IMG/VR virus record: IMGVR_UViG_2531839432_000012
DNA length: 36,254 bases
Direction: 5' to 3' (one strand)
DNA from: a virus
Taxonomy: Duplodnaviria > Heunggongvirae > Uroviricota > Caudoviricetes
Shown here in pieces: positions 12,344 to 35,923 of this stretch (position 1 is the first letter of the stretch; each line of letters opens with the position of its first letter). Made by a program: the position numbers and the translations under genes. The notes beneath the pieces were generated by a model that worked only from the letters and a program-made list of their open reading frames with translations, had not been told where the DNA came from and ran no database searches.

Positions 12344-12344
12344 T

Positions 12345-12554: not shown

Positions 12555-12811
12555 CCACTTTAACCGACAAAGAACTGATTAAAGAAATCAAAGAGCGCAT
12601 AGGTAGCCTGGACGTTCGAGACAATATTGAACGCCGTGCTTATGAAATTGCACTGGCATCGCTGGAAGCAGAGCCAGTAGCATGGATGCATGTAAATAAC
12701 GGCATCGGAATACCAGCAATAACAAGGAGTAAAGATGTTGCAGAGAGTTGGTTATCAAAAGGCTGGTATGTCCAACCCTTACATCTAGCCCAGCCTGCAT
12801 CAAAGCTATAG
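12551..12811 (+). CDS. Hypothetical protein (86 aa), last gene of the operon
   Basis: Start overlaps the previous stop (ATGA); followed by a terminator. Confidence 0.5.
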   Translation: MTTLTDKELIKEIKERIGSLDVRDNIERRAYEIALASLEAEPVAWMHVNNGIGIPAITRSKDVAESWLSKGWYVQPLHLAQPASKL

Positions 12812-12820
12812 AAATGAGCC

Positions 12821-12850
12821 AAACGCCCTCTTCCAGGGCGTTTATTTCAA
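12821..12850 (+). terminator. Rho-independent terminator (AAACGCCCT-cttcc-AGGGCGTTT + TATTTCA)
   Basis: Seen in sequence directly after the stop at 12811. Confidence 0.55.
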
Positions 12851-13248
12851 TGCACAATAGCGCACAAATTTGCACAATTTTTTTGAACGACTTTTTGCCC
12901 TTCCGGCCCGCGTGGCGGCTGGATCCGTCAAGGATCCGTGCGTGCACAAAAAAACGCGCTTTTTCTACGCGCAGGTGACGGGGGAACAGCCCGCGTTTCA
13001 GGGGGTAAATAGCACTCCCTGAACGATGTCGCAGCGACACAACAGAATGGCTGTATCGCTCACGCTGAGCGTGAAAAAGACGTAAGGGGTTCTGATTTGA
13101 TGGGATGAAAGGTAAGGCCGTCAAAATCGCACTGAGGCGGCGAGAAAATGCAGTCAGCGCGGTGGGATTGTGTAAGAGTCTGGCCGTCGATGATAGCGAT
13201 AAGTCGGAAGACGTCGTGAAATTATCTGATTGATACGGGAGCTGGAGA

Positions 13249-13277
13249 GCCGGGGCATAAATTTTTTATGCCCCGGC
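13249..13277. other. Perfect 29-bp palindrome GCCGGGGCATAAATTTTTTATGCCCCGGC (hairpin or protein-binding site) inside a 565-bp non-coding region
   Basis: Seen in sequence. Confidence 0.4.
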
Positions 13278-13376
13278 GAAGCAGCAGACAAGCGAAGCGC
13301 GTCAGTGATGCAGCACCTTGCCGACCACACTTCATAAGTGCAAAATACGAGCAAAGAAATCAATGGAGGCTGTTTT

Positions 13377-13901
13377 ATGGTCATTAATTACAAGCAGTTA
13401 CGAGAAAAACGAGAGCAGGTAAAGGAAAGTTTTCGCCGCAATGAAGATCTGACCCCGCTTGTACACCTTGCCCAGGGAATTGTTGATGCTTATGAAATCT
13501 CTCTGGAGCTGCCATCACAGACATGGACGGATAGCGATGGTAATCGCCAGCATTACGTTTCATGCGGACTGGAAACAACTGAAGGGGTTCGCAGAATGCC
13601 TTTATCTCAGATTCCTGCCGCTACCCCCAAAGCAAGGGGCGGCAATGATGAGCGAAAACTGATTTTCAGCATTGAGACAGTGGTTGACGACACACCTGGC
13701 GAAGTCGCGTTCGTGCATACTCCTCTTTCGATCGCAATGTATAACGATGAAATACAGGTTCGCGTTAATAATAATATCGTGCCACTTAAAGAAGGTAATT
13801 CACCATACACCACCGTTTGTGAAGCCATCCAATATTACGTTCTCTCTGAAATTGATAATCTCAAGCCTGACGGCACCCAGAAAATGGTTCAACTCTGGTA
13901 A
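13377..13901 (+). CDS. Hypothetical protein (174 aa; start at ATG 13377 with RBS GGAGG)
   Basis: ORF convergent with the portal gene; no recognisable motif. Confidence 0.55.
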   Translation: MVINYKQLREKREQVKESFRRNEDLTPLVHLAQGIVDAYEISLELPSQTWTDSDGNRQHYVSCGLETTEGVRRMPLSQIPAATPKARGGNDERKLIFSIETVVDDTPGEVAFVHTPLSIAMYNDEIQVRVNNNIVPLKEGNSPYTTVCEAIQYYVLSEIDNLKPDGTQKMVQLW

Positions 13902-13907
13902 AAAGGA

Positions 13908-13932
13908 CAGCCCCATCACGGGGCTGTTTTTT
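13908..13932. terminator. Bidirectional terminator-like hairpin (CAGCCCCATCACGGGGCTG + TTTTTT) between the convergent 13377..13901 gene and portal gene Q
   Basis: Seen in sequence; overlaps the last codons of Q. Confidence 0.5.
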
Positions 13933-14962
13933 CATCAAGAAGAGCATAAGAATTAAAACGGATCACCTCTTCACCAAGCCAGTCATTGATGTGCTTCATG
14001 GCCTCCATGACAGGCATCAGCTCGTTAATTGCGTAAACCCGCGCTGCCTTCTCCACATCACCAAACGCACTTTTTTCGCCCGGCATCGCCCCCATCAGTT
14101 GCGGCGGAACGCGGTGCGAAGCCAGCACATCATCACGGGATGCCGCCTTAACATTCATGAACTCATCCTTTGCGGTGATCTGCTGGAACGGCAAAATTTG
14201 CACCCCCTCTTTGCCCCCGTTGGGCGCATGAATGAGCACGTTTTTAAACGCACCACCACCACGTGCCCCCTGTAGCGTTTCCTTCAGGGAGTCCATGCTT
14301 TCGCGGTTTACCTGCGCTGCACCGATGTAGATGATGCACCCGGCGTGGGATCCGTTGTCGTAGTACAGCTTTCTGAACATGTCCGCCGAATGAGACAGGC
14401 TGGCCGAGAGTAATGCGCCAAGATATTCCGGCATGCCGTAGATTTCCTGGTTAATATCCGGATTCATCAGGTGGCACACTTTGCCAGGGCGAAACTGAAA
14501 CGCGTCCTTGCCATCCTGTACATACCACCATGATTCAAGATCGCTTCCGCGTCGCATGTATTTCGCCAGGGCGTGCCGTAATTTAAGCGGTTCGCCGAGC
14601 ATATTGCTTCGAAGCTCAAGGAATGCGTTACCGAATACAAACCAGTCCAGCGCCAGCGCCGAGAAATCCTGCCGGGAAAGCAGCGGGGGCGGAATATAGC
14701 AACCGAGCAATACATTGCGCTTAAAGTAAAGCGCAGACTGATGCCAGGACGTTTGCCGGGCGGCTCTTGCCAGACCGTACCAGTCCACCGGGGTTTCATA
14801 CCACCGCCCGTTATCAGCACAGTACATATTGTCCAGCAAATCATGCCCGGTCAGGCGATAAGGACCATCAAATGTGAATGCACTGAGCGATGATTCTTTC
14901 CTGAGCGCATCAGCGAGATCAATGCGTGAACTCATGCGCACTTTTTTATTTTTTCTGCTCAT
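13916..14962 (-). CDS. Q: Portal protein (P2 gpQ-like)
   Basis: 348-aa ORF directly downstream of and overlapping the large terminase gene, divergent from the O-N-M-L operon as in P2; size matches gpQ. Confidence 0.8.
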   Translation of the reverse strand: MSRKNKKVRMSSRIDLADALRKESSLSAFTFDGPYRLTGHDLLDNMYCADNGRWYETPVDWYGLARAARQTSWHQSALYFKRNVLLGCYIPPPLLSRQDFSALALDWFVFGNAFLELRSNMLGEPLKLRHALAKYMRRGSDLESWWYVQDGKDAFQFRPGKVCHLMNPDINQEIYGMPEYLGALLSASLSHSADMFRKLYYDNGSHAGCIIYIGAAQVNRESMDSLKETLQGARGGGAFKNVLIHAPNGGKEGVQILPFQQITAKDEFMNVKAASRDDVLASHRVPPQLMGAMPGEKSAFGDVEKAARVYAINELMPVMEAMKHINDWLGEEVIRFNSYALLDEKTAP

Positions 14963-16713
14963 CAGAACTCCATAACCGTGAAACGCTCGTTTTCTCCTTC
15001 GCCGCCAATCGGTTCGTTAATGACAGCAAGCATGGTTGCCCACGCAAGGTCGCCGTGGCTGATCCCCCTCGCGCGGTCCGTTTCGTAAGTGATAAAGCCG
15101 CCCGGTGTTTTCACCTTACGCACGGCGTTAAAGGCCGCGACCAGCTCGCGTTCGGCGCGATCGTATTCCCACCGCCCGGCACGCATTATTTGCAGCATTT
15201 TCAGTACCAGCGACCGTTTTGATGACAGCGTGAAGGTGTACGGAATAGCAGCAGGGAAAAACCGTTTCACTATCTGATAAACAGCCTCCCCGTTCCCGCC
15301 CGTCACATCAATGCCGATGTGTTCCACGTTGTAGCGATACGTGAACTCTTCAATGACTCTGGCCTGTTCTTCAAACTCCAGCCCCTGAACGCGTCGCGTC
15401 TCCACCGTTCGAAAACGGCCACCAGGAACAGCCGGAGGAACCACCACGGACACAGCGCCGCTGTCGCCGTTGCCACTGCTGCCGTTTGCGTCATACCCAA
15501 TCCATACCGGACGATTTCCCATCGGGCGGGGAGCAAAAGGTTTCCAGTCTTTCCAGTCGTCGTATCCGTCAACGCCGCAGCCAATCAGGATATTCAGGTT
15601 AAATGCCGATTCCCCTTCGCGGACAAACTCACACATATAGAGATTGCGGAACTCGTCTTCGGTGTTTTCATCACGAATTTCATCAATATCGGTGTGTTTC
15701 CAGCCGTGATTAACCACATCTTCCAGCGTGACAATTTGCCGCCACGTCCGGTCGGGGCAGATAAGCCCGTTATGCAGCGTTTTCCAGTCCACAGAAAAAC
15801 GCTGGCGTTTATGCGCGGCCTTTTTCTCGTTCCAGCGGTCGCCGTTCCAGTAGACGTATGCCTCGTGCGTTTCGGTTGATGGCGTGGAGAAGTAGGTGCG
15901 CCGCAGTCCGCTGAGGGTTGCCATAGCGCCAGCCACCTTGCGCAGTTCAGCAAAGCGACTGACCCAGAAAAATTCATCAAAATAAAAATTGCCTGTGTAG
16001 GACTGTGCCGTCGCAGCAGAAGTACCGAGAAAATGCAGTTCTGCGCCGTTGGAGAGGATGATTTTATCGCCCCCTTTCAGCTCCACATCAACTTCAGCCG
16101 CGGCCTTCTGAATAATGCTTTTAAACTGGAACGCCTGACGACGCGACGCAGACAAAAAAATCTGGTTACGCTGGTAAGGTTGTGCCACATCGTCACGCAG
16201 CGCCATCAGCAGTGCTTCCTGTGCAAAATACCAGGTCGCCCCAATCTGTCGGGATTTCAGGATCATCCTGTTACGTATCCCGGCTTCACTGCAAAGGGTC
16301 AGGGAGTCAAACCAGCCCCGCTGATGCCACTCCAGCCTGCTGATGATTTTTTCCCGCAGTGCGGCAATCTGCTCCGGCGTGAAATGATTTTTAAGTTTTT
16401 TCGCCCGGCCTTTCTTTCCTGTGGCCGTCGCATCCGGCTGGCCATCATGCAGTTTTTTAAGCTGCCGGGTCAGCAGGTCTATTTCCTTGAAGTCACCACC
16501 TGTTTTATTCTGTTTTTCAGTAAGCTGGATGAGGCGCGCATCGATGGATTGCGTGACACGCTGCACGGGTGGCGTTTCATCCCACTGGTCGCGTTTTTTC
16601 CACGCATAAATCGTGTTCGGGTTTATTCCCATCAGACGTGATATTTCTGCGGGCGGATAACCCTGCCAGTAAAGTTGCCGCGCACGCTGGCGCACAAAAG
16701 CGTCCTGAATCAT
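14962..16713 (-). CDS. P: Terminase large (ATPase) subunit (P2 gpP-like)
   Basis: 583-aa ORF with N-terminal HTH-like segment (YWQGYPPAEISRLMGINPNTIYAWKKRD) and terminase-like core; P2 gene order. Confidence 0.85.
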   Translation of the reverse strand: MIQDAFVRQRARQLYWQGYPPAEISRLMGINPNTIYAWKKRDQWDETPPVQRVTQSIDARLIQLTEKQNKTGGDFKEIDLLTRQLKKLHDGQPDATATGKKGRAKKLKNHFTPEQIAALREKIISRLEWHQRGWFDSLTLCSEAGIRNRMILKSRQIGATWYFAQEALLMALRDDVAQPYQRNQIFLSASRRQAFQFKSIIQKAAAEVDVELKGGDKIILSNGAELHFLGTSAATAQSYTGNFYFDEFFWVSRFAELRKVAGAMATLSGLRRTYFSTPSTETHEAYVYWNGDRWNEKKAAHKRQRFSVDWKTLHNGLICPDRTWRQIVTLEDVVNHGWKHTDIDEIRDENTEDEFRNLYMCEFVREGESAFNLNILIGCGVDGYDDWKDWKPFAPRPMGNRPVWIGYDANGSSGNGDSGAVSVVVPPAVPGGRFRTVETRRVQGLEFEEQARVIEEFTYRYNVEHIGIDVTGGNGEAVYQIVKRFFPAAIPYTFTLSSKRSLVLKMLQIMRAGRWEYDRAERELVAAFNAVRKVKTPGGFITYETDRARGISHGDLAWATMLAVINEPIGGEGENERFTVMEF

Positions 16714-16867
16714 TGCTCCCCCTGAGTAATTACAGGAAGATTACCCGCGCGCGAAACCGTTCTCCTTAACCCCCTGTTCTGGCCGTTTTCTTACAACAAA
16801 AGCCCTTTGTATCAGCCTGTTACGCTTTGCCATCATGACTGAAGAACCAGTCAGAGGGGCAAAAACT

Positions 16868-21692: not shown

Positions 21693-22146
21693 TTCCCTGC
21701 GTGAAGCCATGACCCGTTCATGCCGATGGTGTCAGGCCAACCCGGAAAAATTCACCATTTTCGTGGAGAGCGGCAACATTGAAACGACCGGAGAAACGCC
21801 CTCGTTTGTTTACCGCTATCAGATGGTGATGTTTGTCATGGATTACGCCGGGGAGCTGGACGACCTCACGCTGCCGCTACTGGCGTGGTTATCAGAAAAT
21901 CAGCCACAGTTGTTGCTCAATCCGGAGCGTAATCAGGACATCAAATTCTCCGCCGTTATCAATGACGATGACAGCGCCGATCTCCTGTTTACGCTCCCTC
22001 TGCAGGAACGCGTTCGCATCACGCGCAGCAGTCAGGGCACGCCGCAGGCAGAACACCTGCCGGAGCCAAAACCCCGCCTGCCATCTTCCGAAGGCGACTG
22101 GTCGCATGTATTCCAGGATGTGACGTGGGGTGAAAGCGATGGATAA
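21679..22146 (+). CDS. R: Tail completion protein (P2 gpR-like)
   Basis: 155-aa ORF in the P2 position. Confidence 0.65.
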   Translation: MLKTDSLREAMTRSCRWCQANPEKFTIFVESGNIETTGETPSFVYRYQMVMFVMDYAGELDDLTLPLLAWLSENQPQLLLNPERNQDIKFSAVINDDDSADLLFTLPLQERVRITRSSQGTPQAEHLPEPKPRLPSSEGDWSHVFQDVTWGESDG

Positions 22147-22774
22147 GGCATTCCCCCGCGTGGATGAAACCTTTGAGGCCATCCGCGACAGCCTGAATCA
22201 GCAGGCCATCAATAACATCGCCAGAAAGCTGGCACAGGATTTACGCCGCGCCCAGCAGGCGCGTATCCGGTCACAGAAAGCGCCGGACGGGACCGCGTGG
22301 ACACCACGCAGACGCCGCGTAACCCGGATACAGGAACGCATTCGCTTTATCTGGAATAACGAAGCACGCACGCTGAAAAACTGGCATCACGACACGGGGA
22401 AATACGGGCGAACCATTACCGGGTGGGATGAGGATAAAAATAATATCCGCACGTTTTACCGGGATGACATCGACCGTTTTCTGGAAATACGCACCCGGCG
22501 CATCAACCAGGACAGCACAAAGCGCGTCCCCATGTTCGTAAAACTGCGCACCGCCCGCTACCTGAAAGCCCGTGCAGATGCTTCCGGTGTGACGGTGGGT
22601 TACAGCGGCGTGGCCGCACGTATTGCCCGCGTTCATCAGTTCGGTGAGCGCGATCAGGTTGCGCCGGGCATTTTCACCGATTACCCGGTACGTGAGCTGT
22701 TGGGTATCAGCCAGGCAGATGAGCGCCTGATTTATAACACGGTGCTGGGCCGGATTGCGGAGGCTGTACGGTGA
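22130..22774 (+). CDS. S: Tail completion / virion morphogenesis protein (P2 gpS-like)
   Basis: ORF in the P2 position; longer than P2 S. Confidence 0.6.
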   Translation: MKAMDKAFPRVDETFEAIRDSLNQQAINNIARKLAQDLRRAQQARIRSQKAPDGTAWTPRRRRVTRIQERIRFIWNNEARTLKNWHHDTGKYGRTITGWDEDKNNIRTFYRDDIDRFLEIRTRRINQDSTKRVPMFVKLRTARYLKARADASGVTVGYSGVAARIARVHQFGERDQVAPGIFTDYPVRELLGISQADERLIYNTVLGRIAEAVR

Positions 22775-23352
22775 GCGCAGAACTCATGCGACTGCTGAGC
22801 AATATCATCCGCACCGGGATCATCTCTGAAGTTGATGAGAAGTCCTGGCGCGTGCGCGTTCGCAGCGGCGAACTGGAAACAGGCTGGCTGCGCTGGAACA
22901 CCACGCGCGCGGGAGCCTTCAATGTGTGGCTGCCGCCATCACCAGGCGAACAGGTGGTAATTGCCTGCATTGGCGGCAACCCGGAAACCGCCATGATAAT
23001 TGGCAGCCTGTGGAGTGATGCCAGTCCGGCCCCCGGCAAAAGCCTGAAAGAAATCGTGGTCAGCGCGCCGGATGGCGCGGTGTTCCGCTACGACGCGGAC
23101 GCAGGCGCACTGAGCGCCAGCGGCATGAAAACGGCCACTTTACAGGCATCCGTCAGCGTGAAACTGGATACGCCCGTCGTGGAATGCACAAACCTTCTGA
23201 GAACGGCGACGCTTGACGTCACAAAAGGAGGAAAGATGAGCGGCAATATCACGCACAGCGGCGGCAACTTCACCTCAAACGGCATTACCGTGCATACGCA
23301 TAAACACGGTGGCGTTAAAGGTGGCAGCGATTCGACAGGAGGCCCGCAGTGA
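22771..23352 (+). CDS. V: Baseplate spike / assembly protein V (GTG start overlapping the S stop)
   Basis: Translation matches the remembered gpV pattern (IRTGII, GGNFTSNGITVHTHKHGG). Confidence 0.8.
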   Translation: MSAELMRLLSNIIRTGIISEVDEKSWRVRVRSGELETGWLRWNTTRAGAFNVWLPPSPGEQVVIACIGGNPETAMIIGSLWSDASPAPGKSLKEIVVSAPDGAVFRYDADAGALSASGMKTATLQASVSVKLDTPVVECTNLLRTATLDVTKGGKMSGNITHSGGNFTSNGITVHTHKHGGVKGGSDSTGGPQ

Positions 23353-24599: not shown

Positions 24600-25200
24600 T
24601 TCGTTGTTACCACCATCAGCCAGCAATTTCATGCGTTGTGCCGAAGCCGTCGGAACACGCATTACAGACATTCCGGTAGACCTCAACACGCTGTGGTCGC
24701 CGGACACCTGCCCGGTGCATCTGCTGCCTTATCTCGCCTGGGCGTTTTCCGTTGACCGCTGGGATCGCAACTGGCCGGAAGAGACAAAGCGACAGGTGAT
24801 TCGTGATGCATGGCTGATACACCGACACAAAGGGACCATCAGCGCACTGCGAAGAGCCGTGGAGCCTCTCGGCTACCTGATTGAAGTAAAGGAGTGGTGG
24901 CAACTCAACGAGGAGCCAGGAACATTTCGCATTGTTGTCGGAGTACTTGATCAGGGCATCACCGATGAAATGTATCAGGAACTTGAGCGCCTTATTGCGG
25001 ATGCAAAACCAGTAAGTCGCCATCTGACGGGGCTGACGATCAGCCTGAGTGTGAACGGAAAGATTTTCGTTGGTACGGGATGCTATCACGGCGATGCCCT
25101 GACGGTTTATCCCTACACCCCGGAGTCCATTATTGTCGAAGGGGATTATTTTCCTGCCCCGGCCATTCATTTAATTGATAATCTGAGAGTAAACGCATGA
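24592..25200 (+). CDS. I: Baseplate / tail formation protein I
   Basis: ORF in the P2 position (start at ATG 24592). Confidence 0.7.
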   Translation: MSNSLLPPSASNFMRCAEAVGTRITDIPVDLNTLWSPDTCPVHLLPYLAWAFSVDRWDRNWPEETKRQVIRDAWLIHRHKGTISALRRAVEPLGYLIEVKEWWQLNEEPGTFRIVVGVLDQGITDEMYQELERLIADAKPVSRHLTGLTISLSVNGKIFVGTGCYHGDALTVYPYTPESIIVEGDYFPAPAIHLIDNLRVNA

Positions 25201-26927
25201 CAGTGAAATACTACGCCATTCTGACTAATCAGGGCGCGGCACGACTGGCTAACGCGACGATGCTCGGCAGTAAGCTGAATCTGACGCAAATGGCCGTTGG
25301 TGATGCAAATGGTGTGTTACCAACACCAGACCCTGCACAAACAAAACTGATTAACCAGAAACGCATCGCGCCGCTGAATCTTCTGAGTGTTGACCCGAAC
25401 AACCAGAGCCAGATTATTGCGGAGCAAATCATCCCTGAGAACGAGGGCGGATTCTGGATCCGTGAGATAGGTCTTTATGATGATGAAGGCGTACTCATTG
25501 CGGTGGCGAACTGCCCGGAAACGTACAAACCACAGTTACAGGAAGGCAGTGGTCGTACCCAGACCATCCGTATGATTCTGGTCGTCTCGAATACCGAAGC
25601 CATCACGCTGAAAATCGACCCGTCAGTGGTGCTTGCGACGCGCCAGTATGTAGATCAGCAAATAGAAGTTCATGAGCAATCGCGCCGTCATCCATCTGCT
25701 TCTTTGACAGAAAAGGGATTTGTACGTCTGTATAGCGGTGTGGAAAGCAATGATGAAACAGTCGCTGCAACGCCAAAAGCAGTGAAAATAGCGATGGATA
25801 ATGCCAGCGCCAGACTGGCAAAAGACCGCAATGGTTCTGATATTCCCAATCCGGCACTGTTTGTTCAGAATCTGGGATTGAAAACGACTGTTGATAAAGC
25901 AGCATCAGCGATTCAGCCAGGAGATTATGGAATTGGTCTGGCTTATCTGAAAACCATGGGAACCAAATCGCAATTTTTTGCTTACAGTACAGCTGTCGGC
26001 TATCCAGAAGTGCCAACACATGGTGCTGGTTTCCAGGCCTGTTACAACGACAATCGGCGTGCACAAATTTATGTCGCTAATGATGGCAAGATGTACTGTC
26101 GATTCAGCATGTTATCGAAAATTGCCGATGATGAAACACCGTGGAATCAGGTGTTCACCAGTGCACATTATCCAGAAGCATCAGTGAGTGTTAAAGGAAT
26201 GGTGCAACTGGGGAGCGATGTAAACAGCGTGTCAGAAAATGTTGCGGCGACATTGAAAGCGGTAAAAATTGCGATGGACAACGCCAGCGCGAGACTAGCA
26301 AAGGACCGCAATGGTGCTGATATTCCTGACCCGACTTTGTTTATTCAGAATCTGGGACTTAAACCGACAGTTGATAAGGCTGAAAGTGCTCTGCAACAGG
26401 GAGCATACGGAATCGGTAGCAAAAATAACTACGAAATGGGTGAGGTTTCACAGTTTCTTGCATATTCAGGTAATGCAGATGAAGTGCCATCGAATGGGGC
26501 AGGTTTTCAGGCTGCGTATAACAAGAACAGACGCGCGCAGATTTTCATCACCGGAGCAGGAGAAATGTATCACCGTTTCAGCGGCTCTGATACGGTTAAA
26601 GACAATACAACACTATGGCGTCGGGGTGTTTGTGAAGATGAATTTTCATTTGGCAGCAATTATCACCGAATAACTGGCGGTGTGCTGAAGCAGTTTTTTA
26701 ACAGTTATTTTTCCGGGGCAACTGGTGTGGTGAATAAAGAGTATCAGGTGAATTTTCCGACACCATTTGCCCGTCAGTGCTGGTACGTAATCCCCGTTTT
26801 CCGTTCGTCACACGGTGGGAGTGTTGAGGGGGTCGCCATTACAGCTATTACTGCAACTGGCTTTACTCTGAGCATCACCGGAGATAACGGTGGATGGAAT
26901 ATTGGGTTTATTGCGGAGGGGGTCTGA
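25197..26927 (+). CDS. H: Tail fiber protein H with an internal duplicated module and a lower-GC C-terminal region
   Basis: Conserved P2 H-like N-terminus (MAVGDANG, FWIREIGLYDDEGVLIAVANCPE, HEQSRRHPSASLT); duplicated AATPKAVKIAMDNASARLAKDRNG...QNLGLK segment. Confidence 0.8.
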   Translation: MTVKYYAILTNQGAARLANATMLGSKLNLTQMAVGDANGVLPTPDPAQTKLINQKRIAPLNLLSVDPNNQSQIIAEQIIPENEGGFWIREIGLYDDEGVLIAVANCPETYKPQLQEGSGRTQTIRMILVVSNTEAITLKIDPSVVLATRQYVDQQIEVHEQSRRHPSASLTEKGFVRLYSGVESNDETVAATPKAVKIAMDNASARLAKDRNGSDIPNPALFVQNLGLKTTVDKAASAIQPGDYGIGLAYLKTMGTKSQFFAYSTAVGYPEVPTHGAGFQACYNDNRRAQIYVANDGKMYCRFSMLSKIADDETPWNQVFTSAHYPEASVSVKGMVQLGSDVNSVSENVAATLKAVKIAMDNASARLAKDRNGADIPDPTLFIQNLGLKPTVDKAESALQQGAYGIGSKNNYEMGEVSQFLAYSGNADEVPSNGAGFQAAYNKNRRAQIFITGAGEMYHRFSGSDTVKDNTTLWRRGVCEDEFSFGSNYHRITGGVLKQFFNSYFSGATGVVNKEYQVNFPTPFARQCWYVIPVFRSSHGGSVEGVAITAITATGFTLSITGDNGGWNIGFIAEGV

Positions 26928-27361
26928 TGAGTTATTTTTACAGTCCATCAAGAAATGCATTTTATAACAGTGAACTGAAATCTGATTATTACGATGCTCT
27001 CGATGCGTGGCCGGATGACTGTATTGAGGTAAGTGATGCTGTCTATCAGGAGTTTTATCTTGGTTATCGGGAAGGGTACAAAATGGTTGCAGGCACTGAT
27101 AACCAGCCATCATGGGAAGAACGTCCACCATTGACCCATGAGGAACAGGTGGAACAGGCAGAAATGATGAAACAGATGCGCATTAATGAGGCTAACAACC
27201 TGATTAATGAAAAACAATGGCCATCAAAATTACAGCTTGGCAGGTTGAACGAAATGGAGACAACCAGATTTAATGCGATGCTGAATTATCTTGAGTTACT
27301 TGAAAATATTAATGTAAGTGATGCCCCGGATATAGTCTGGCCTTTATCACCAGAAGTCTGA
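26927..27361 (+). CDS. G: Tail fiber assembly protein (gpG/Tfa-like)
   Basis: Start overlaps the H stop (ATGA); position and size. Confidence 0.7.
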
Positions 27362-27365
27362 ATAC

Positions 27366-27385
27366 ATCCCCGCGTCTGCGGGGAT
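27366..27385 (+). terminator. Hairpin ATCCCCGC-gtct-GCGGGGAT after the tail fiber assembly gene
   Basis: Seen in sequence; modest U-tract. Confidence 0.4.
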
Positions 27386-27782
27386 TCCTGTATCCGCCGT
27401 TGTGCCATTTTTCATACAAACCACATAACGTGCATCCTGCTCGTATCAACCAGAACATAGGCAGCCCCCCTCTACTACCGGAGAGACTGCCTTATGGCTC
27501 AGGATTACCACCACGGGGGCGCGTTGTTGAAGTCAACGAAGGCACCCGATCCATTACCACGGTGAGCACCGCCATCGTGGGTATGGTCTGCACGGGCGAT
27601 GATGCCGATGTAAAAATGCCTCCTCTTACTGTTCACCAAATAAGCAGAACACAGAATTGCAACGTAACACTCTACAATGCGCAAAATACGGACTGGTTAT
27701 TGAAGATAAAATCAGCAACACGAAATCATCACGTGACTATTTAATCTTGCAATAACACGTAAGGTGAGCAAGGAAACATTAA

Positions 27783-27813
27783 AACCGCTAATCTGACCAT
27801 TAGCGGTTTTTGT
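27783..27813. terminator. Bidirectional terminator (ACCGCTAAT-ctgacc-ATTAGCGGT + TTTTGTGTT) just downstream of the minus-strand U gene
   Basis: Seen in sequence. Confidence 0.5.
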
Positions 27814-27819
27814 GTTAAA

Positions 27820-28314
27820 TCAGAACAGCCCTTTAACTGAACTGGCCGCGCTGTTAAGGGATGATGTCACCTTATCTTTGAAGCCGGACAGCATATCGCT
27901 GAACGATGAGGATTGCAGGCGCTCCCGCAAATCCTCATCACAGCGTTCAAGGGTCAGTGAAAATTCTATCTTTTTCGCCTTACCGTAGCGATCAAACTCG
28001 GAGCGGGTCGTATTCGTTCCGGTCAGGACATACATGCCGTAAATCTGCCCGACACCATCAATCAGAGGCCAGGGGCGTCCTGTATATGCCTGCGTGGTCA
28101 GCAACGAAAGCGACACTTCGCCACCTGTAATTTCAGGATAAAGCACACCAGAAAGAACGATGCGATCATCGCCTGCCCCGATATACTGCCAGCTTGCTGA
28201 ACGGTTAACGCGTTCATTTTTCACATGCCGCCAGCTTTTGTTTTGCTGTAACTGCTGATGCGGCAACGTGCGCAGCTCAAAAACAAACATGCCGTAGATC
28301 ATCATCATGGCCAT
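27820..28314 (-). CDS. U: Tail protein U
   Basis: 164-aa ORF following the tape measure gene on the minus strand; size as P2 U. Confidence 0.75.
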   Translation of the reverse strand: MAMMMIYGMFVFELRTLPHQQLQQNKSWRHVKNERVNRSASWQYIGAGDDRIVLSGVLYPEITGGEVSLSLLTTQAYTGRPWPLIDGVGQIYGMYVLTGTNTTRSEFDRYGKAKKIEFSLTLERCDEDLRERLQSSSFSDMLSGFKDKVTSSLNSAASSVKGLF

Positions 28315-28320
28315 GACTCC

Positions 28321-31164
28321 TCAATCTTTATCGTAAAAACTGCCACGTCCGGCACGGTCGCGTCGTTCCAATTCTGCCCTGACCATTTCACCGACCAGTT
28401 TCGCCAGTTCGCGGGGATTCTGTGTAACAACGTTATGCAGATGAACATGAATTTCACCGCCAAATCCGGAGGCAACAGGCTCCCGGTTACGGGAAGTTGC
28501 AGGAGCTGATGCCACTGGCGATCGTATGGCCTCCGCCACCGGGCGGGAGCTGGCCGCAACAACAGGGACCAGCGCCGGAGGCAGCGGAGCCGGAACCACG
28601 GGTGTGATATTAATTGCGGGGGCAGGCTTACTGACCTGCGCAATCTTCCTCCCCTGCCACTCCCCACGAACAGCAAGTGCGCGGGGCAGGTTCTTAAAGA
28701 CAATATCGCCGGGGCCAATGCGTTTTTTCGTCTCATCAACCAGCTTACCTGTGTTATCAGCAATTTTGCTGAGTCTGCGTAGCGTACCGGTATTGCTGTC
28801 TGTGAGCGGTTTGTTGTCTTTGGGCTTATCACCTCCGGTACCATTGCCATTTTCCACAGGCTTCGGCGGATTGATTTTCGCCAGGTCCCCCTGAAGTAAG
28901 GCAACCTTGTCCTGAAGAATGGCCGCACGCTGTGCGTCTTCGATTTTCTTGCGCGCCCTTTCCGCTTCATCCGGAAGGACGCCAAGTTTTTCAAGTATCC
29001 ACGCCAGCGTATCCAGTAGCATTTTTGCAGGTGTCAGAACAAGTTGTAACGCACCGCCAAGAACGTTACCGAATATCTCGCCAGCACTGGTACATTTATC
29101 CAGCGTTTCCTTGCTGGACTCCATCGGTGACAACAGCGATTTAAACCAGTTAAACACCTGGCTGATCCCGCTTCCGATTGCGTCAAAAACAGGACCAAAC
29201 CGTTCAAAGGTTTCGCGCAACGGGGTCAGCCTTTCCATAATCCCGCTGAACACCCCGGCAAAAAATGCCCTGATGGGATCCCAGTATTTCCAGATGAGAA
29301 CGGCAGCTCCGGCAAGCGCAGCCACGATAAGACCGACCGGACTGAACAACGCCCCGATAGCGCCCCCCAGTAACGAAACGGAACCCGTCACCATTCCCCA
29401 TAGTGCTGGCAGGAGTCTGACAGCATTCATTGAACCGGTCAGGAGGGAAAAGCCAAGACGCAGTTTTGCCAGCGGACCAGCAAGCACACCAATAGCCAGC
29501 GACAACGAGCCAACCGTTGCAGTCATTGCCAGCAACGCACCGCCTGCTATCAGTAGCTGGCGCGTCAGTGCCGGATGGGCCTGCGCCAGCGCCGTCACCC
29601 TTGATACCACCCGCGTGAGCCACTGCGTGACAGAACGCAGCGGACCGTCAATCAGATCTGCAATGCGGATGCGCAACCCTTCCCATGCACTGCCGAGTGA
29701 TTTCAGATCGCCGTCAAGGTTGTTGGCCATGACCTTTGCTGTGCGTTCAGCCTCACCGCGCGCGCCTTCAAGTTCTTTTCTCAGTTTAGGTAAGGAACCG
29801 TCACCCGCTGCATCAACGAGCGCCATAAACGATGTGAAAGCCTCTTCTCCGGCAATGTCCTTAAAGAACGATACCCGGTCAACTTCCCCGTATTTGCGGG
29901 TGGCTTTATAAAGGTCGGCCAGCACATCCTCCATCGGGCGCATTTTGCCGTTCGCGTCAGAGACTGCCACACCAAGCTCTTTCAGCGCCTCTGCTGCTGC
30001 CTTTGGCGGTGATGCCAGACGAGCCAGGCTGGCACGCATTGCCGTCCCGGCATCACTCCCTCTGATACCCATATTCGCCAGCACGCCCGCCATCGCTGCG
30101 GCCTGCTCCAGCGATATTCCCAGCTTACCCGCCACCGGACCTGCATATTTCATGGTTTCGCCCAGTGCGCGAAGGTCAGTGTTGGTACGGGTAAATGCTG
30201 CGGTGAGCGTGTCGCCAACCCGGTCCATCTGGTCAGCGGAGAGGCCGAACTGCGTCAGGATATTTGAGCCAATATCTGCCGTCTCGCCAAGGTCCATACC
30301 GCCAGCCGTTGCCATGCTCAGCACGCCCGGAAGCGCAGCCTGAATGGCCTGCGGAGTGAAGCCAGCCATTGCAAGAAATGCCTGCCCACTGGCGGCATCG
30401 CCTGCGGTGAACTGCGTTTCAGAGCCAAGTTTTAACGCCTGCTCACGCAGCGCCTTAAACTGCGGGCTGTTTTTGTCGATTCGCGTCAGTGCCTGAACGC
30501 GGGACATCTCTTTGCCGAACCCGATCGCAGGCTGCAAAAAACGCCCGGCAGCATAGCCGCCAGCCGCTGCCGCACCAATTGCCAGCGCACCACCTGTTTT
30601 CAGTTTTCCCGCGGTTTCCTGCACGCGCGAATACCGCTCACGCGCCCGCGTTACACGCGCAAGCGCCTGCCGTTCGCGTTCAAGCTGGTTGTTGTACTGT
30701 TCGGTGCGTCTGATGGCCTGCTGGATGGTGTTATCGCTGCCTGTCAGGGAAATGCCGTGGCGTTTCAGCTCTCCGCCAAGCTCCCGCATTTTCTGAATTT
30801 CCCGTGTGCGCGATTCATTCAGGCGTTCAAGCCGGGTGCTTAACTGCTGCATCAGCTTTTGTTGTTTTTCGCTGAGCACTGTACCCGTGCGTTGTAACTG
30901 ATTAAGGGCGTTAAGCTGGCGTCGCGCTTTCACGATACCCGCATCCGCTTTACTGACAGCGTCGCGGGCGCGCTCAAATGAACGCGCCTGACGCTCGAGA
31001 TTTTTGATCGCCCCCTGCGTTCGCTGGATGGAGTCACCAAACTGCCCCATCAGGCGGCGGGCGTTTTCGGCAGGGCGGGTCAGCCTGTCAACGGCGCTGA
31101 AAGCGACCCGGATATCAAGAGTCTTCATTGTCTGCATTCCCGCTGCGAAGTGCCGCCCGCTCAC
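28321..31164 (-). CDS. T: Tail tape measure protein (gpT-like); exact start uncertain (alternative ATGs at 31137 and 31128)
   Basis: 947-aa ORF with long coiled-coil and Gly/Ala-rich hydrophobic stretches; follows E/E'. Confidence 0.85.
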   Translation of the reverse strand: MSGRHFAAGMQTMKTLDIRVAFSAVDRLTRPAENARRLMGQFGDSIQRTQGAIKNLERQARSFERARDAVSKADAGIVKARRQLNALNQLQRTGTVLSEKQQKLMQQLSTRLERLNESRTREIQKMRELGGELKRHGISLTGSDNTIQQAIRRTEQYNNQLERERQALARVTRARERYSRVQETAGKLKTGGALAIGAAAAGGYAAGRFLQPAIGFGKEMSRVQALTRIDKNSPQFKALREQALKLGSETQFTAGDAASGQAFLAMAGFTPQAIQAALPGVLSMATAGGMDLGETADIGSNILTQFGLSADQMDRVGDTLTAAFTRTNTDLRALGETMKYAGPVAGKLGISLEQAAAMAGVLANMGIRGSDAGTAMRASLARLASPPKAAAEALKELGVAVSDANGKMRPMEDVLADLYKATRKYGEVDRVSFFKDIAGEEAFTSFMALVDAAGDGSLPKLRKELEGARGEAERTAKVMANNLDGDLKSLGSAWEGLRIRIADLIDGPLRSVTQWLTRVVSRVTALAQAHPALTRQLLIAGGALLAMTATVGSLSLAIGVLAGPLAKLRLGFSLLTGSMNAVRLLPALWGMVTGSVSLLGGAIGALFSPVGLIVAALAGAAVLIWKYWDPIRAFFAGVFSGIMERLTPLRETFERFGPVFDAIGSGISQVFNWFKSLLSPMESSKETLDKCTSAGEIFGNVLGGALQLVLTPAKMLLDTLAWILEKLGVLPDEAERARKKIEDAQRAAILQDKVALLQGDLAKINPPKPVENGNGTGGDKPKDNKPLTDSNTGTLRRLSKIADNTGKLVDETKKRIGPGDIVFKNLPRALAVRGEWQGRKIAQVSKPAPAINITPVVPAPLPPALVPVVAASSRPVAEAIRSPVASAPATSRNREPVASGFGGEIHVHLHNVVTQNPRELAKLVGEMVRAELERRDRAGRGSFYDKD

Positions 31165-31644
31165 GCCAGCTAACCACTTCGCCGGGCGTCATCATGAAGA
31201 TTTCGGCGGGCGACCAGTTAAAAATAACGGCAATATCTGCCACAAAGTCTTCTATGTGCTCAAAGCACACAACCGTGATCAGGCTTCCGTCGCCTGTTCG
31301 TTCTTCCCGCCAGAGTCCGCACCGCTCAAAAAATTTACGGCAACCACACATAACTGAATAAAGTCACGGGATGCCATTTTTTTGATCGTCACTTCATCCA
31401 GTCGCGGTGATGTCACGCGTGACAGCAGCGTAAACATGGATTCCGCTTTCAGATTCAGCACATCAGACAGCGACAAATCTCGCAGAGATCCAGCCTGCTC
31501 AATAGCCCCGGTGATCTCCACATACGTGATTTTTTCGCCGCCTCGCTCAATGGGTTGGGTAAGTTTTACGCCACGCTCACTGGTTTCTTTCACAGTGTCA
31601 GCAACTACCGTGTTTTCGGTATCGATGTTTTTCGTCTCTTTCAT
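31115..31644 (-). CDS. E+E' fusion chaperone produced by programmed -1 ribosomal frameshift at TTTTTTG (plus-strand coordinates 31327..31333)
   Basis: Slippery heptamer seen in the E reading frame (..AAU UUU UUG..); the -1 frame continues into the overlapping ORF 31115..31351, which overlaps the start of T, as in P2. Confidence 0.7.
31279..31644 (-). CDS. E: Tail assembly chaperone E
   Basis: 121-aa ORF between FII and T on the minus strand. Confidence 0.75.
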   Translation of the reverse strand: MKETKNIDTENTVVADTVKETSERGVKLTQPIERGGEKITYVEITGAIEQAGSLRDLSLSDVLNLKAESMFTLLSRVTSPRLDEVTIKKMASRDFIQLCVVAVNFLSGADSGGKNEQATEA

Positions 31645-31698
31645 CAGGAAACTCCTTTCAGTCAGAGGCGACGCACTGCGCCGCCTGCATATTACTTA

Positions 31699-32211
31699 TC
31701 AGCCAAGCCCAAGCGCGGAACGGATGCGATCGGGCACAATGTCCTTGCCGTCCTTCCGGTAAATGAAGTTCAGCAGGTCAATCTCCCACAACGGACGATC
31801 GTTAACACTCAGCTTGTAGTAGGTGTTTTTAATGGCGTAAGTGTGTGATGTGGCTTCGCCCTGTTTGGCTTCCCCCATATCAATTTCCGTCACACGTCCG
31901 CGCATTTCGACTTCATACAGGTCGCTTTCTGCATCGGTGTAGTATTCACCCGCAAAACGCAGCAGCGTGCCGTCAATCGTGCCGCCATACTTAAGGAACA
32001 GCTCACGAACTGCGCCCCCCATGACAAAGCTCGCATCAAGCGCGGAGTCGTCCAGACCGAGATCAATACTTACCGCCCCCATCATGCCACCACCCCGGTA
32101 GCTGTCGGTTTTGCGCGTCAGTTTGGGCAGAGTGACGGACGTCCCCTTACCCACTTCGTTTTCACCATCCACAAACAGCGTAAAAAAGCGAAGATGTTTT
32201 GGCACAGCCAT
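31699..32211 (-). CDS. FII: Tail tube protein FII
   Basis: 170-aa ORF directly downstream of the sheath gene. Confidence 0.85.
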   Translation of the reverse strand: MAVPKHLRFFTLFVDGENEVGKGTSVTLPKLTRKTDSYRGGGMMGAVSIDLGLDDSALDASFVMGGAVRELFLKYGGTIDGTLLRFAGEYYTDAESDLYEVEMRGRVTEIDMGEAKQGEATSHTYAIKNTYYKLSVNDRPLWEIDLLNFIYRKDGKDIVPDRIRSALGLG

Positions 32212-33395
32212 CAGGCACCTCCCAGCACCGCAAATGCGGGTTCAAAGTATTCATCAGTAAACGTCTGGTAAAGCTCCATGTCTTCCAGTGGCGGAACGGG
32301 CGTATATTTGTAGCGAATACGCACACGCCCCTGACGTAAATCCGTGGTGCTGTTATCCACCACGTCATACCAGCACTCCGCGCCAATCAGTTTCCCGGCA
32401 GTCACCAGTGAATCCAGTTTTGCCCTGATGGCACTGATAACATCCTTCACGTTCGCAGGCGTCAGTGGACTGTCGATGGTTTCAAACTGCGCTTCCGCAA
32501 TTGAATCAGCCAGCACCTGTGCGGTTCGGGTATACACCTCAAAAATGTAGGCGTTCGTTTCCGGTGTGCGGTTGCCCCAGAAGCGGAACCCGTTGCGACG
32601 AATAATGGTCGTGATTTCTTTGTTGTTGAGGCTGTTGGCATCGCTGTCTTCGGCCTGCAACGACCAGAACACATGCCTCGACATCCCCAGCACATTTTTA
32701 ACCGGAACGTTGGACAGCGATTTGTGCCAGCCCTGCTCATGGTCAATGTACGCACGAAGGCCGCACGCATAAGCAGGCGCGGGGAACGTTTCGTTTTCGC
32801 CACTTTTCGGGTTGTAGGCGATGAAGTCCGGCCATAAGAGCATCACTTCACGTTCGTTGAATTTCTGGCGGTAGGTAATCGCTTCAGCCATCGTGTTACA
32901 GCCGTGACATGAGGCATACACAAATGCGCGCAGTTTACCCGCAATCACGCACAGGGATTTTGTCACCGCCTCCGTGTCCAGCTCCGGCGCGGCCAGAATA
33001 CGCGGACGGTATCCGATGCTTTCATCCTGCTCTGCAACAAGCAGCGCATACATCCCCGTATAGCTGCCGTCATCCTCAGAACCACCGATAACCAGTTGAT
33101 CCTGCGTCTTTTCGTCTTCTTCTTTGTGTTCAGCCACACGAACGACGATCACCTTTGTGCTCACCTGGTCTGCGATGGCCTTAAGCGCACGATAAAGCGT
33201 CCCCGTTGTTCCGCATTTTCCCAGCACGTCATTGACGCGGGTCAGCAGTGTGGGCTTGTTCAGCTGGAACAGCTTCGCGTCCGCATCATCCGCCGTTGCC
33301 ACGATACCGATAACGCTGGAATCAACATCGTTAATCGCTGTTACCAGGTCGGTATTTTCCGTAACACGGGCACCATGAAAACGAGTTTCACTCAT
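32211..33395 (-). CDS. FI: Contractile tail sheath protein FI
   Basis: 394-aa ORF; size and position; RBS AAGGGG. Confidence 0.85.
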   Translation of the reverse strand: MSETRFHGARVTENTDLVTAINDVDSSVIGIVATADDADAKLFQLNKPTLLTRVNDVLGKCGTTGTLYRALKAIADQVSTKVIVVRVAEHKEEDEKTQDQLVIGGSEDDGSYTGMYALLVAEQDESIGYRPRILAAPELDTEAVTKSLCVIAGKLRAFVYASCHGCNTMAEAITYRQKFNEREVMLLWPDFIAYNPKSGENETFPAPAYACGLRAYIDHEQGWHKSLSNVPVKNVLGMSRHVFWSLQAEDSDANSLNNKEITTIIRRNGFRFWGNRTPETNAYIFEVYTRTAQVLADSIAEAQFETIDSPLTPANVKDVISAIRAKLDSLVTAGKLIGAECWYDVVDNSTTDLRQGRVRIRYKYTPVPPLEDMELYQTFTDEYFEPAFAVLGGA

Positions 33396-33552
33396 AGCTT
33401 CAGCCCCTTGTATCCGTTAAATGATTCAGCAACAATCATCACCCACCACGTGCGTAATCTCACCCCTGCGCCGTTCTCCCGCCACGGCGACAACAAAAAG
33501 CAGTAACCCCCTCCGCACGCACATGCGACCATGCCACACAGGGAGGGAGCAG

Positions 33553-34653
33553 ATGACCGACACCACCATGCAATTGCTCAGTCAGGGCACAGAACCCGTG
33601 AAAATGCCGGATTTTGATATTCTCGCCGAGGGTAAAACGCTGTCCGGCGTGGCAGAACGCCTGATGAGCCTGTCACTGACCGACAACCGGGGATTTGAGG
33701 CGGACCAGCTCACCATCACGCTGGATGATGCCGATGGCCAGTTGCAGCTACCGCCACGGGGCGCGCGTCTGACGGTTCTCATTGGCTGGAAAGGGGAACC
33801 GCTGACAGAAAAAGGCACTTACATTGTTGATGAAATCGCTCACGAAGGACCGCCGGACAGGCTGACTGTTTCAGCCAGAAGCGCAGATTTTCGGGATGAA
33901 TTTAACGTTAAACGTGAGGTGTCCTGGCATGATGTGACCGTTGAGCGTGTGGTATCCGCCATCGCTCATCGGTATGGTCTGAAACCGCAAATCAGCGAAA
34001 TGCTGATGGATATCGAAATCGACCACGCCGACCAGACCGAAGAAAGCGATATGTCCTTCCTTACGCGCATGGCGGAAATGCTGGGCGCAATCACCACGGT
34101 AAAAAGCGGCAATCTGTTATTCATCATGCCCGGTGGTGGCGTGAACACACAGGGCCAGCCGTTGCCCTCGTTCGCCATTACACGCAGCAGCGGCGATCGC
34201 CATCAGTTCCGCATTGCTGACCGCGAGGCGTATACGGGTGTACGCGCCTACTGGCTTGATCTTAATTACGGGAAAAAGAAAAAAGTCAGCGTGAAACGCC
34301 GCAAACCGAAAAAAGAGAAAAGCAGCAGCCGTGAAGGTGACTATATGGAAGGTGCGGAAGGCAACGTGTTTGTGTTACGCAAAACTTATCAGAACGAGCA
34401 GGCAGCAAGACGCGCAGCGGCGGCAAAGTGGCAGCAGCTACAACGCGGAGCCGCATCATTTTCCATCACGCTGGCACGTGGACGAGCAGAGCTCTACCCC
34501 GAAATGCATGGCACGGTAACAGGATTTAAAAGCGAGATTGATAATCAGGACTGGATCATTGCAAAAGCCGAGCACACCATTGATAACAGTGGCTTTACCA
34601 CGCAGCTTGAGCTTGAAGCCAAAATCCCGGAATGGATAGCAGAAACAGAGTAA
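33553..34653 (+). CDS. D: Tail protein D (late control D family); start at MTDTTMQLL
   Basis: 366-aa in-frame ATG inside the longer ORF 33421..34653; position before ogr as in P2. Confidence 0.8.
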   Translation: MTDTTMQLLSQGTEPVKMPDFDILAEGKTLSGVAERLMSLSLTDNRGFEADQLTITLDDADGQLQLPPRGARLTVLIGWKGEPLTEKGTYIVDEIAHEGPPDRLTVSARSADFRDEFNVKREVSWHDVTVERVVSAIAHRYGLKPQISEMLMDIEIDHADQTEESDMSFLTRMAEMLGAITTVKSGNLLFIMPGGGVNTQGQPLPSFAITRSSGDRHQFRIADREAYTGVRAYWLDLNYGKKKKVSVKRRKPKKEKSSSREGDYMEGAEGNVFVLRKTYQNEQAARRAAAAKWQQLQRGAASFSITLARGRAELYPEMHGTVTGFKSEIDNQDWIIAKAEHTIDNSGFTTQLELEAKIPEWIAETE

Positions 34654-34847
34654 ACAACTTAGATGCATTAGCCCTGACATTTGCTAACGCGCTTACAGCA
34701 AGAATCATAACCAATCTGACAGCCTACCCGGTGTCAAAATCAGAAGAGCCTTACATTAGAATATGTTAATTTGTAGCAAACAAATTTACACACAAATGAT
34801 TACTGCTGAAATAGCCCCCATAAATGCCATGTCAAAGGATCCATGTT

Positions 34848-35513
34848 ATGAATATGCAAATTTTTATCGCACCAGCAGCCACAGTTGCTGCAGTCTGCCT
34901 TGCTGCATATTTTGCTTTACGAAATGAACGTAAAAAGAAAGCACTTGAGATTAGAACAACTCAACTAGATCGAATATCAGAGCTAGTAAACCGAGCATCT
35001 ACCAATTTGATGCAATATACAGGTACTCTTGCCTCTATACTGGAAGCGCACGCCAAAGATAATTATCTACCGAACAAAAAATTTGACATTAATGTAATTA
35101 GCAAATGGAAAGATTGCCTCGATGAGAGTGAGGTCTGGGCGATTGATATACAGCAACTAAGAACATGTCAGCACAGTCTGGAGTTTCATCGTGAAAAAGA
35201 ATGGGCTGAATGGAAAAAAATAATTCCACCATTACTTGATAAAATTAACCAATTTTTTCTCATATCTAAGCTAGGGCAACCTGTTACGTTTATAAATGGC
35301 CAAAACAAAACAGCTGATGAACTACTTGTTTTCTCAAGATATTTGAGAAAACAAACAGCAGAAATTGAATCAGTACGTCAGCTGTTACTTTCTCAAATGA
35401 GAGAGGAATTCATCGAGTTAACTAGCTTTGAACCTGTCACAATGTTTAGCTTATTTAAATCAATAAAGAAAAATGTCATGCAATTTTTCTGTATCAGTGC
35501 TCTTAAAAATTGA
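34848..35513 (+). CDS. Low-GC hypothetical protein with an N-terminal transmembrane helix and ~190-aa soluble domain; candidate accessory gene inserted between D and ogr
   Basis: ORF with RBS AAAGGA 8 nt upstream of ATG 34848; visibly AT-rich compared with flanking genes; predicted TM segment IFIAPAATVAAVCLAAYFAL; followed by a terminator. Confidence 0.6.
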   Translation: MNMQIFIAPAATVAAVCLAAYFALRNERKKKALEIRTTQLDRISELVNRASTNLMQYTGTLASILEAHAKDNYLPNKKFDINVISKWKDCLDESEVWAIDIQQLRTCQHSLEFHREKEWAEWKKIIPPLLDKINQFFLISKLGQPVTFINGQNKTADELLVFSRYLRKQTAEIESVRQLLLSQMREEFIELTSFEPVTMFSLFKSIKKNVMQFFCISALKN

Positions 35514-35662: not shown

Positions 35663-35923
35663 ATGTTCCGTTGTCCGCTTTGTGGCGCATCTGCCCGTAT
35701 CCGCACCAGTCGTCCGGAAAATGATTCAAACACCGTGCGGCAAAAGTATTACCAGTGTAACAACCTGGAATGCGGCGTATGCTTCTCAACACTGGAAGCT
35801 TTCCATAAATTCACATCGAAACACGCCTCCGGCATCCACTCTTCAGAAGGTATCCCGTGGCATGAGCTGCCAGCTTCACACAGGGGAAACAATCAGATGA
35901 GTTTGCCTTTACCTCAGAATTAA
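35663..35923 (+). CDS. ogr: Late gene transcription activator, Ogr/Delta zinc-finger family
   Basis: N-terminus MFRCPLCGASARIRTSR...YYQCNNLECGVCF matches the Ogr Cys4 pattern (CPLC...C..C); RBS AAGGGAGG; position after D. Confidence 0.8.
   Translation: MFRCPLCGASARIRTSRPENDSNTVRQKYYQCNNLECGVCFSTLEAFHKFTSKHASGIHSSEGIPWHELPASHRGNNQMSLPLPQN

Follow-up and report, generated by a model that had tools for sequence, protein, structure and literature searches.

The reversed sheath-to-U tail operon of a P88-like prophage as an inherited gene order within the P2-related phages

The stretch of DNA considered here (36,254 nt of a Caudoviricetes virus, IMG/VR record IMGVR_UViG_2531839432_000012, referred to below as the window) is most probably a P88-like prophage of the Xuanwuvirus type. 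Its gene order would have been inherited with its clade and would combine one old inversion, a bidirectional late promoter, and a later exchange of tail-fiber genes; we put the probability of this reading at about 0.88. We imagine that a monophyletic branch of the Peduoviridae inherited a reversed FI-FII-E/E'-T-U operon, made once, when the F operon was inverted without D. The window shows a leftward FI-U unit with an intact E/E' signal and a D gene that has its own ribosome-binding site.

The original prediction had placed FI to U on the minus strand and D, with the baseplate and fiber genes, on the plus strand, and had explained this as a local rearrangement of one prophage. The description stands, and both PHROGs and Pfam confirm it; an order of genes is read directly from the sequence and leaves no part for chance. 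The P2 reference record likewise bears out that FI-FII-E-T-U-D is colinear with V-W-J-I-H-G in that phage, and the conclusions that the FI-U block is inverted relative to P2, and that D is severed from the F operon and needs a promoter of its own, both hold. The explanation, however, does not. The same divergent FI and D are standard in P88, in other Xuanwuvirus phages, and in further genera, and divergence of these two genes is thus the norm in reference P2-family genomes of this kind. A large and viable P2-like branch has its genes arranged in this way normally and invariably, and in that sense the reversed block is ordinary.

As a discovery this carries little weight, since it is the gene order of several ICTV genera and occurs in roughly one in four complete E. 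coli genomes; the arrangement is already known, in that it is present in annotated reference genomes. It does warn against taking P2 as the model of gene order throughout the Peduoviridae. In addition, it is a natural case in which an inversion has divided an operon, and the stranded D seems to rely on the activator site of the former operon promoter. The model of a shared activator site and the scar of the fiber exchange, both discussed below, are modest additions.

Gene content and limits of the reversed block

The ORF map, read with PHROGs and Pfam, assigns U, T, E/E', FII, and FI to the minus strand (27820-33395) and D and the baseplate and fiber genes to the plus strand (Table 1). Together these make up a complete and intact P2-type tail set, with sheath, tube, E and its -1 frameshift product, tape measure, GpU, and GPD. 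Both D and U align with P2 over their full lengths, and U is 100% identical in amino acid sequence to U of P88. What is absent from the window is the single colinear operon from FI to D, running in the direction of V-G, that is found in P2.

P2 itself (NC_001895) has the same genes, the same internal order from FI to U, and the same T TTT TTG frameshift signal, and its activator site upstream of FI has the orientation and the roughly -55 geometry of the one proposed here. The two nevertheless differ in layout. The P2 F operon runs in line with V-G and takes in D, the start of which overlaps the stop of U, and the order ends D-ogr. In the window, FI-U points the other way and D stands apart with a ribosome-binding site of its own; the proteins of the two are only 32-49% identical.

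Table 1. Features of the reversed tail block and its surroundings (positions in the window)
Feature	Position	Strand	Basis or remark
Probable imported tail-fiber module with invertase remnant	25037..27770	+	3' end of I, H, G, relic P_F, FI'
H, fiber gene	25197-26927	+	
G	26894/26927-27361	+	
Relic P_F activator site, upstream of FI fragment	27401..27418	+	perfect TGT-N12-ACA
FI' pseudogene	27494..27628	+	45 codons from the start of a second tail sheath gene, of canonical type
Serine DNA invertase fragment, 39 codons	27630..27746	+	corresponds to residues 9-42 of P88 invertase
Bidirectional intrinsic terminator between convergent G-side and U-side transcripts	27781..27810	.	fold and terminator scan
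U, GpU tail protein, final gene of leftward tail operon	27820..28314	-	PHROG 76, 8e-75; Pfam Phage_P2_GpU, 1.5e-38
T, tape measure	28321..31164	-	PHROG 28, 5e-216
E+E' by -1 frameshift	31115..31644	-	slippery heptamer and -1 frame ORF
E, E-type tail chaperone	31279-31644	-	PHROG 103, 3e-35
FII, tail tube	31699..32211	-	Pfam Phage_tube, 1e-45
FI, tail sheath, first gene of leftward tail operon	32211..33395	-	PHROG 23, 3e-126; Pfam sheath domains
FI/D divergent spacer, 157 bp	33396..33552	.	
Putative Ogr-type activator site	33475..33492		TCT-N12-ACA on plus, TGT-N12-AGA toward FI; adjacent ACAACAAAA
D, baseplate hub GPD	33553..34653	+	PHROG 52, 2e-166; Pfam Phage_GPD; alignment to P2 D
Ogr/Delta zinc-finger gene	35663-35923		Pfam Ogr_Delta

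The E/E' frameshift is intact, as had been claimed. The heptamer T TTT TTG, of the P2 type, lies at 31333-31327 on the minus strand, at codon 104 of E, and the -1 frame that encodes E' is open as far as a stop at 31115, adjoining the start of T. The annotations of P88 and of the E. coli genome TUM9757 have a GpE family CDS in the matching place. The N-terminal translation of T was examined beside the P88 annotation for the choice of start; T likely begins at the ATG at 31128 rather than at the upstream GTG at 31164, because P88 T is annotated as 2808 nt.

For D, an in-frame ATG at 33421 would lengthen the protein by 44 aa. Aligned with P2 D, the protein of the window matches from the N-terminus, the difference in length being an internal gap of 21 aa, and 33553 is therefore the right start. 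D has a strong Shine-Dalgarno sequence of its own, GGGAGGGAG, at 33541-33549. Between D and ogr, the cargo of the window differs from that of P88-type phages, and its ORF at 34824-35513 had no match in Pfam, PHROGs, or PADLOC. The sole match of a sigma-70 scan, at 34516-34545, falls within the 3' end of D, upstream of this ORF.

At the other end of the block, the terminator beside U has a stem of 12 bp and a U-run on each strand, with folding energies of -19.3 and -18.2 kcal/mol and z scores of -4.4 and -2.8, and the hairpin is conserved with P88. The leftward FI-U unit and the rightward O-to-G late genes converge at this hairpin, which can terminate transcription on both strands.

Distribution and origin of the reversed order

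From the U-side terminator through the block, the spacer, and D (27771-34663), the window gives a single colinear megablast match, at 95-97% identity, to P88 and 12 other phage records, and these 12 are Xuanwuvirus. The reversed U-T-E'-E-FII-FI order is common to the window and to P88 (NC_026014; Peduoviridae, Xuanwuvirus), PhiR44_2, Shae_phiSM, P88_4B11, and 500465-2, and so are the 157-bp spacer, D, and the U-side terminator, again at 95-97% identity. The annotated strands of P88 and P88_4B11 agree with those of the window, with U-T-E-FII-FI opposite D and the baseplate genes. Matches to P88 cover 76% of 3300-27800 at 96.7% identity and 86% of 26800-34800 at 97.4%. The parts without P88 coverage are the fiber module and the cargo; the remainder of the window is mostly 95-97% identical to P88-type phages.

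Complete E. coli genomes tell the same story. An 801-bp probe for the FI/D junction was found nearly full-length in 1355 of 5426 such genomes. A synthetic probe for the canonical junction was made from the lineage's own sequence, joining the last 300 nt of U to the first 300 nt of D; among the 1413 genomes matching either half of this probe, none (0/1413) had the lineage's U joined to D in the P2 order. Orientation is fixed in the P88-like lineage. Given the divergent junction in 1355 genomes and the lack of any U-D join, assembly error and a switchable segment are therefore excluded.

The layout reaches well beyond E. coli. A protein scan with FI, taking one genome per species, gave 57 loci, picked by FI similarity, on which J, I, H, G, FI, FII, E, T, U, and D were placed by tblastn. 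At every locus with an FI at least 69% identical (23/23), D is divergent from FI, and FI-U is convergent with G/H/I/J. These 23 loci span about 13 enterobacterial genera (Salmonella, Citrobacter, Edwardsiella, Enterobacter, Kosakonia, Symbiopectobacterium, Mixta, Pantoea, Erwinia, Izhakiella, Kluyvera, Trabulsiella, and Serratia). Loci with an FI at most 48% identical, where D could be placed, were all colinear like P2. The reversed layout is also found in Novemvirus phiT5282H (FI 76% identical), Reginaelenavirus 3LV2017 (68%), and Senquatrovirus SEN5 (55%), and is known in all from four Peduoviridae genera, Xuanwuvirus included. As in the window, phiT5282H, 3LV2017, and SEN4/SEN5 have a divergent D and FI, with FI-U converging on the fiber genes, and they carry a single central dyad in a spacer of 153-157 bp; their divergence is much greater, however, with FI 55-76% identical, and they lack an invertase beside U.

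In neighbor-joining trees, drawn without bootstrap support, the sequences with the inverted layout group in a single clade that includes no canonical sequence, both for FI (27/27) and for D (26/26). Identity to P2 is 46% for FI and 46% for U, which are inverted, and 49% for D, 54% for J, and 61% for I, which flank them and are not. That FI, U, D, J, and I are about equally diverged from P2 (46-61%) fits an inversion in place. Taken together, the clade-wide layout, the monophyly, and the equal divergence point to a single old inversion of FI-U, in place and with D excluded, in the ancestor of the branch.

The reversed arrangement supports viable phage, because both P88 and PhiSM are inducible and plaque-forming: P88 can be induced and is lytic, and PhiSM is spontaneously released, forms plaques, and lysogenizes (PMC5285337, PMC6456863). 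In the literature searched, the coverage of which was partial, we found no text that describes the inversion, and the words inversion, orientation, and sheath are all absent from the P88 paper. P-Q is described in one paper on P2-like phages as "the only multigene leftwards operon," a wording that reflects a P2-centered view.

How else might the block have come to lie backwards? The original prediction favored a recent 5.6-kb inversion private to this prophage, with breakpoints in 27362-27819 and 33396-33552. The order is certainly unlike that of P2, and the left junction does look scarred, with a pseudogene and a gene fragment in it. We nevertheless consider a private event highly improbable. 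The right junction and the U side from 27771 are common to P88 and 1355 E. coli genomes at 95-97% identity, and the layout reaches FI homologues that are only 55-75% identical. Inverted repeats had been proposed as a feature to look for at the two ends; among the inverted and direct repeats of 26800-34800, none pair the junctions, the only junction hairpin being the terminator, and the scars are accounted for by the swap of the fiber module. Still less credible, to the point of being negligible, is a mis-oriented contig, an assembly artefact that had been kept in view earlier. Nothing speaks for it except the unusual order relative to P2, and the same junctions recur in 13 phage records and, from independent projects, in 1355 complete genomes; even the rarer G-FI'-hin'-U junction is repeated, at 99.8% identity, in a complete E. 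coli genome.

The P88-type DNA invertase gene that adjoins the U end of the block, a fragment of which type survives in the window, could suggest a programmed segment flipped by a Hin/Gin/Cin-type enzyme, of which we happen to see one of two orientations. The likeness to Mu G/Gin, P1 C/Cin, and the Hin family lies in this serine invertase gene bordering the block in P88-type phages. In those systems, however, short fiber segments flip between inverted repeats and both orientations occur, and the block shows neither: no inverted repeats flank it, and the other orientation is found in 0/1413 genomes. Moreover, deeper members of the clade have a convergent G and U with no room for an invertase, the invertase of the window is a 39-codon fragment without a start codon, and that of P88 adjoins the alternative fiber genes G'/H'. 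An invertase-driven origin was rejected together with invertase-driven switching, there being no crossover repeats, no polymorphism of orientation, and no invertase beside U in deep members; we would give a programmed segment hardly any chance. A mosaic origin, with a foreign sheath-to-U module inserted backwards in the ancestor, has somewhat more to recommend it, in that P2-like phages are mosaic and the window itself has an adjoining module swap, and yet it too seems unlikely. The inverted FI (46%) and U (46%) are no more diverged from P2 than are D (49%) and J (54%), the FI and D trees split identically, and P_F keeps a P2-like orientation and distance to FI.

A shared activator site between FI and D

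FI and D diverge over a 157-bp spacer, as had been noted before, and we infer that this spacer is a bidirectional, activator-dependent late promoter region, with P_F reading leftward and P_D rightward. In an alignment of 24 spacers, from loci with proteins down to about 70% identity, the block TTTTGTTGT is invariant, and it is part of a TGT-N12-A(G/C)A dyad. The four genera have exactly one central dyad, 68-76 nt from the ATG of D and 81-88 nt from the ATG of FI. It is a perfect TGT-N12-ACA in SEN5 and 3LV2017 and has one mismatch, in the AGA half-site, in the window. Toward FI, the orientation of the dyad and its spacing to a -10-like GAT(G/T)AT match the mapped P_F of P2. In P2, late promoters that depend on Ogr have a TGT-N12-ACA dyad centered near -55, no -35 element, and a cognate Ogr/Delta zinc-finger activator. 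A promoter scan found no sigma-70-type promoter in the FI/D spacer, and the window encodes an Ogr/Delta zinc-finger protein at 35663-35923. Perfect TGT-N12-ACA is absent from both the FI/D and the P/O spacers, the one-mismatch version having been found by alignment; the window as a whole has three perfect matches, which is below chance expectation.

A useful comparison is provided by pP and pO of P2, where the record gives a single activator site between the two promoters, 55.5 bp from each mapped start. The FI/D spacer is alike in that a single dyad of the TGT-N12 type lies midway between divergent late units, some 55 bp from either start, although in the window the starts are predicted only and the half-site is AGA rather than ACA. 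A second copy of the extended motif GTTCT-N12-ACAACAAAAGC stands at 16776-16803, between P and O of the window, and of three exact ACAACAAAA matches in the window, two lie in the FI/D and P/O spacers. If O is read from the ATG at 16868, a start supported by alignment with P2 O, the P/O spacer of the window has a matching geometry.

We imagine that a single Ogr-type site, at 33475-33492, serves both FI and D, lying about 55 bp upstream of both predicted starts (around 33428 leftward for FI and around 33539 rightward for D). Toward FI, the site would retain the geometry of the ancestral P_F; in the other direction it would serve D, and the arrangement would work like the single site of the divergent pP/pO pair in the P2 record. 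This shared-site model rests on geometry and conservation, with starts that are predicted rather than mapped, and two features count against it: the site of the window has one mismatch to TGT-N12-ACA, and the D leader that the model predicts is short, only about 14 nt.

More broadly, and only tentatively, since we rate it at a little under even odds, the old inversion may have set D beside the upstream side of P_F, with one dyad-symmetric Ogr site now acting in both directions, and the entire late regulon of this Peduoviridae branch may depend on two bidirectional activator sites (P/O and F/D). There would be only these two, because S and V abut and leave no room for a separate P_V. In this prophage an orphaned P_F, a third site and a perfect one (27401-27418), may still fire late, into a dead-end FI stub.

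Probable replacement of the tail-fiber module

The interval 27362-27819 had been taken for the left breakpoint of the inversion. Its scars are not those of the inversion and appear instead to come from a later and rare replacement of the tail-fiber module. Homology to P88 ends at 25036 and restarts at 27771. Within this gap, 25168-27628 matches P2-like E. coli prophages of canonical order, and its right end, 27000-27628, corresponds at 98.7% identity to the junction of G with FI in such prophages. Between I and U, P88 has H, G, the pair G'/H' in inverted orientation, and a DNA invertase gene that is intact, whereas the window has a foreign H-G, the relic P_F with FI', and an invertase fragment. 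G'/H' and an intact invertase between G and U are thus a feature of P88 itself and are absent in the window.

The sheath fragment FI' was recognized from matches of the ORF at 27400-27744 to PHROGs 23 and 12477, and alignment to the locus L061 places a 1-nt deletion at its codon 9. The relic P_F upstream of it is the one meaningful match among the three perfect TGT-N12-ACA motifs of the window. The invertase fragment, which has no start codon, is 56% identical to the P88 invertase (BLASTP, E value of 7e-11) and was also matched to annotated invertase genes by blastn. Pfam gave no match for this 39-aa piece, which is too short, and E. coli genomes held no close full-length parent for it, the best match being about 80% identical over 84 nt.

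The simplest history of 25037-27770 would be a replacement in which the invertible tail-fiber region of the prophage was swapped for H-G from a canonical-order P2-like phage. The left crossover may have fallen in the conserved 3' end of I or in the 5' end of H. The right join would have been illegitimate, connecting codon 45 of the donor FI to the recipient invertase, most of which would then have been lost. Such a scar suggests that canonical- and inverted-order P2-like phages trade host-range modules by illegitimate recombination. The whole G-FI'-hin'-U junction is found in only one complete E. coli genome, TUM9757, at 99.8% identity, and the annotation of that genome treats the FI stub as a partial pseudogene with a frameshift.

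Remnants at the G-U junction and the state of their second copy

Directly 3′ of G the window carries two remnants lying almost end to end. The first, in which a vestigial late promoter precedes the truncated start of a canonical-type tail sheath gene, shares 98.7% identity with the junction between G and FI in E. coli prophages with the canonical, P2-type order, and its TGT-N12-ACA dyad, the Ogr-type activator site of P2-like phages, is perfect. The second is a fragment of a serine DNA invertase without a start codon. No close full-length parent of this fragment was found among the E. coli complete genomes, the top match being about 80% identical over 84 nt. The full hybrid junction is rare: only 1 of 5,426 complete genomes in the E. 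coli set, that of strain TUM9757, has it in common with the window.

The TUM9757 prophage copy looks to be decaying. At locus positions 26396 to 27663 its annotation shows a partial pseudogene followed by D as a shortened CDS of 266 aa, and its replication gene A is frameshifted, whereas in the window both genes are intact ORFs.

Features of the window discussed here
Feature	Coordinates	Strand	Remarks
Two low-GC (~43%) ORFs	1174-2212	-	adjoin integrase (2215-3342)
ParM-like plasmid segregation gene and partition or stability gene	10165-11440		after replication gene A
S	22130-22774		directly abuts V
V	start ~22771-22786		within region 22130-23352
Vestigial second late promoter and 45 codons of canonical-type tail sheath gene	27401-27628	+	directly 3′ of G
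Serine DNA invertase fragment, 39 codons	27630-27746		equivalent to residues 9-42 of P88 invertase
229-aa ORF, low GC (~38%)	34824-35513	+	between D and ogr

Late-operon layout and accessory genes

At the S-V boundary there is no intergenic region and no orf30, leaving no space for a promoter like P_V, the P2 late promoter ahead of V; in this lineage, O through G may therefore make up one late operon. The longest ORF for O begins at 16835, but the ATG at 16868 is favored as the start by alignment to P2 O and by promoter geometry.

The ORF between D and ogr has no match in Pfam, PHROG, or PADLOC, and its counterpart in TUM9757 is annotated as hypothetical. A sigma-70-like promoter is predicted shortly upstream, at 34516 to 34545. 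Because phage P88 carries different cargo at this position, the ORF may be a moron. The two ORFs adjoining the integrase, which gave only weak coiled-coil-type matches, could be either cargo or host DNA from the flank. The ParM-like and partition or stability genes, annotated likewise in P88 and TUM9757, are uncommon equipment for a P2-like prophage that integrates.

Unusual loci in the survey

One Firmicute-labeled contig (NZ_JBQPOM010000071.1, "Vagococcus sp. WN89Y") carries this enterobacterial prophage, with the gene order of the window and an FI protein 96% identical to its FI; the assembly is probably contaminated or mislabeled. In an Asticcacaulis MAG (~5846 to 15000), FI, FII, U, and D are colinear, as in P2, but I and J, found downstream of D, are encoded on the other strand. 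Here a distantly related P2-like prophage shows a module inversion distinct from that of FI to U.
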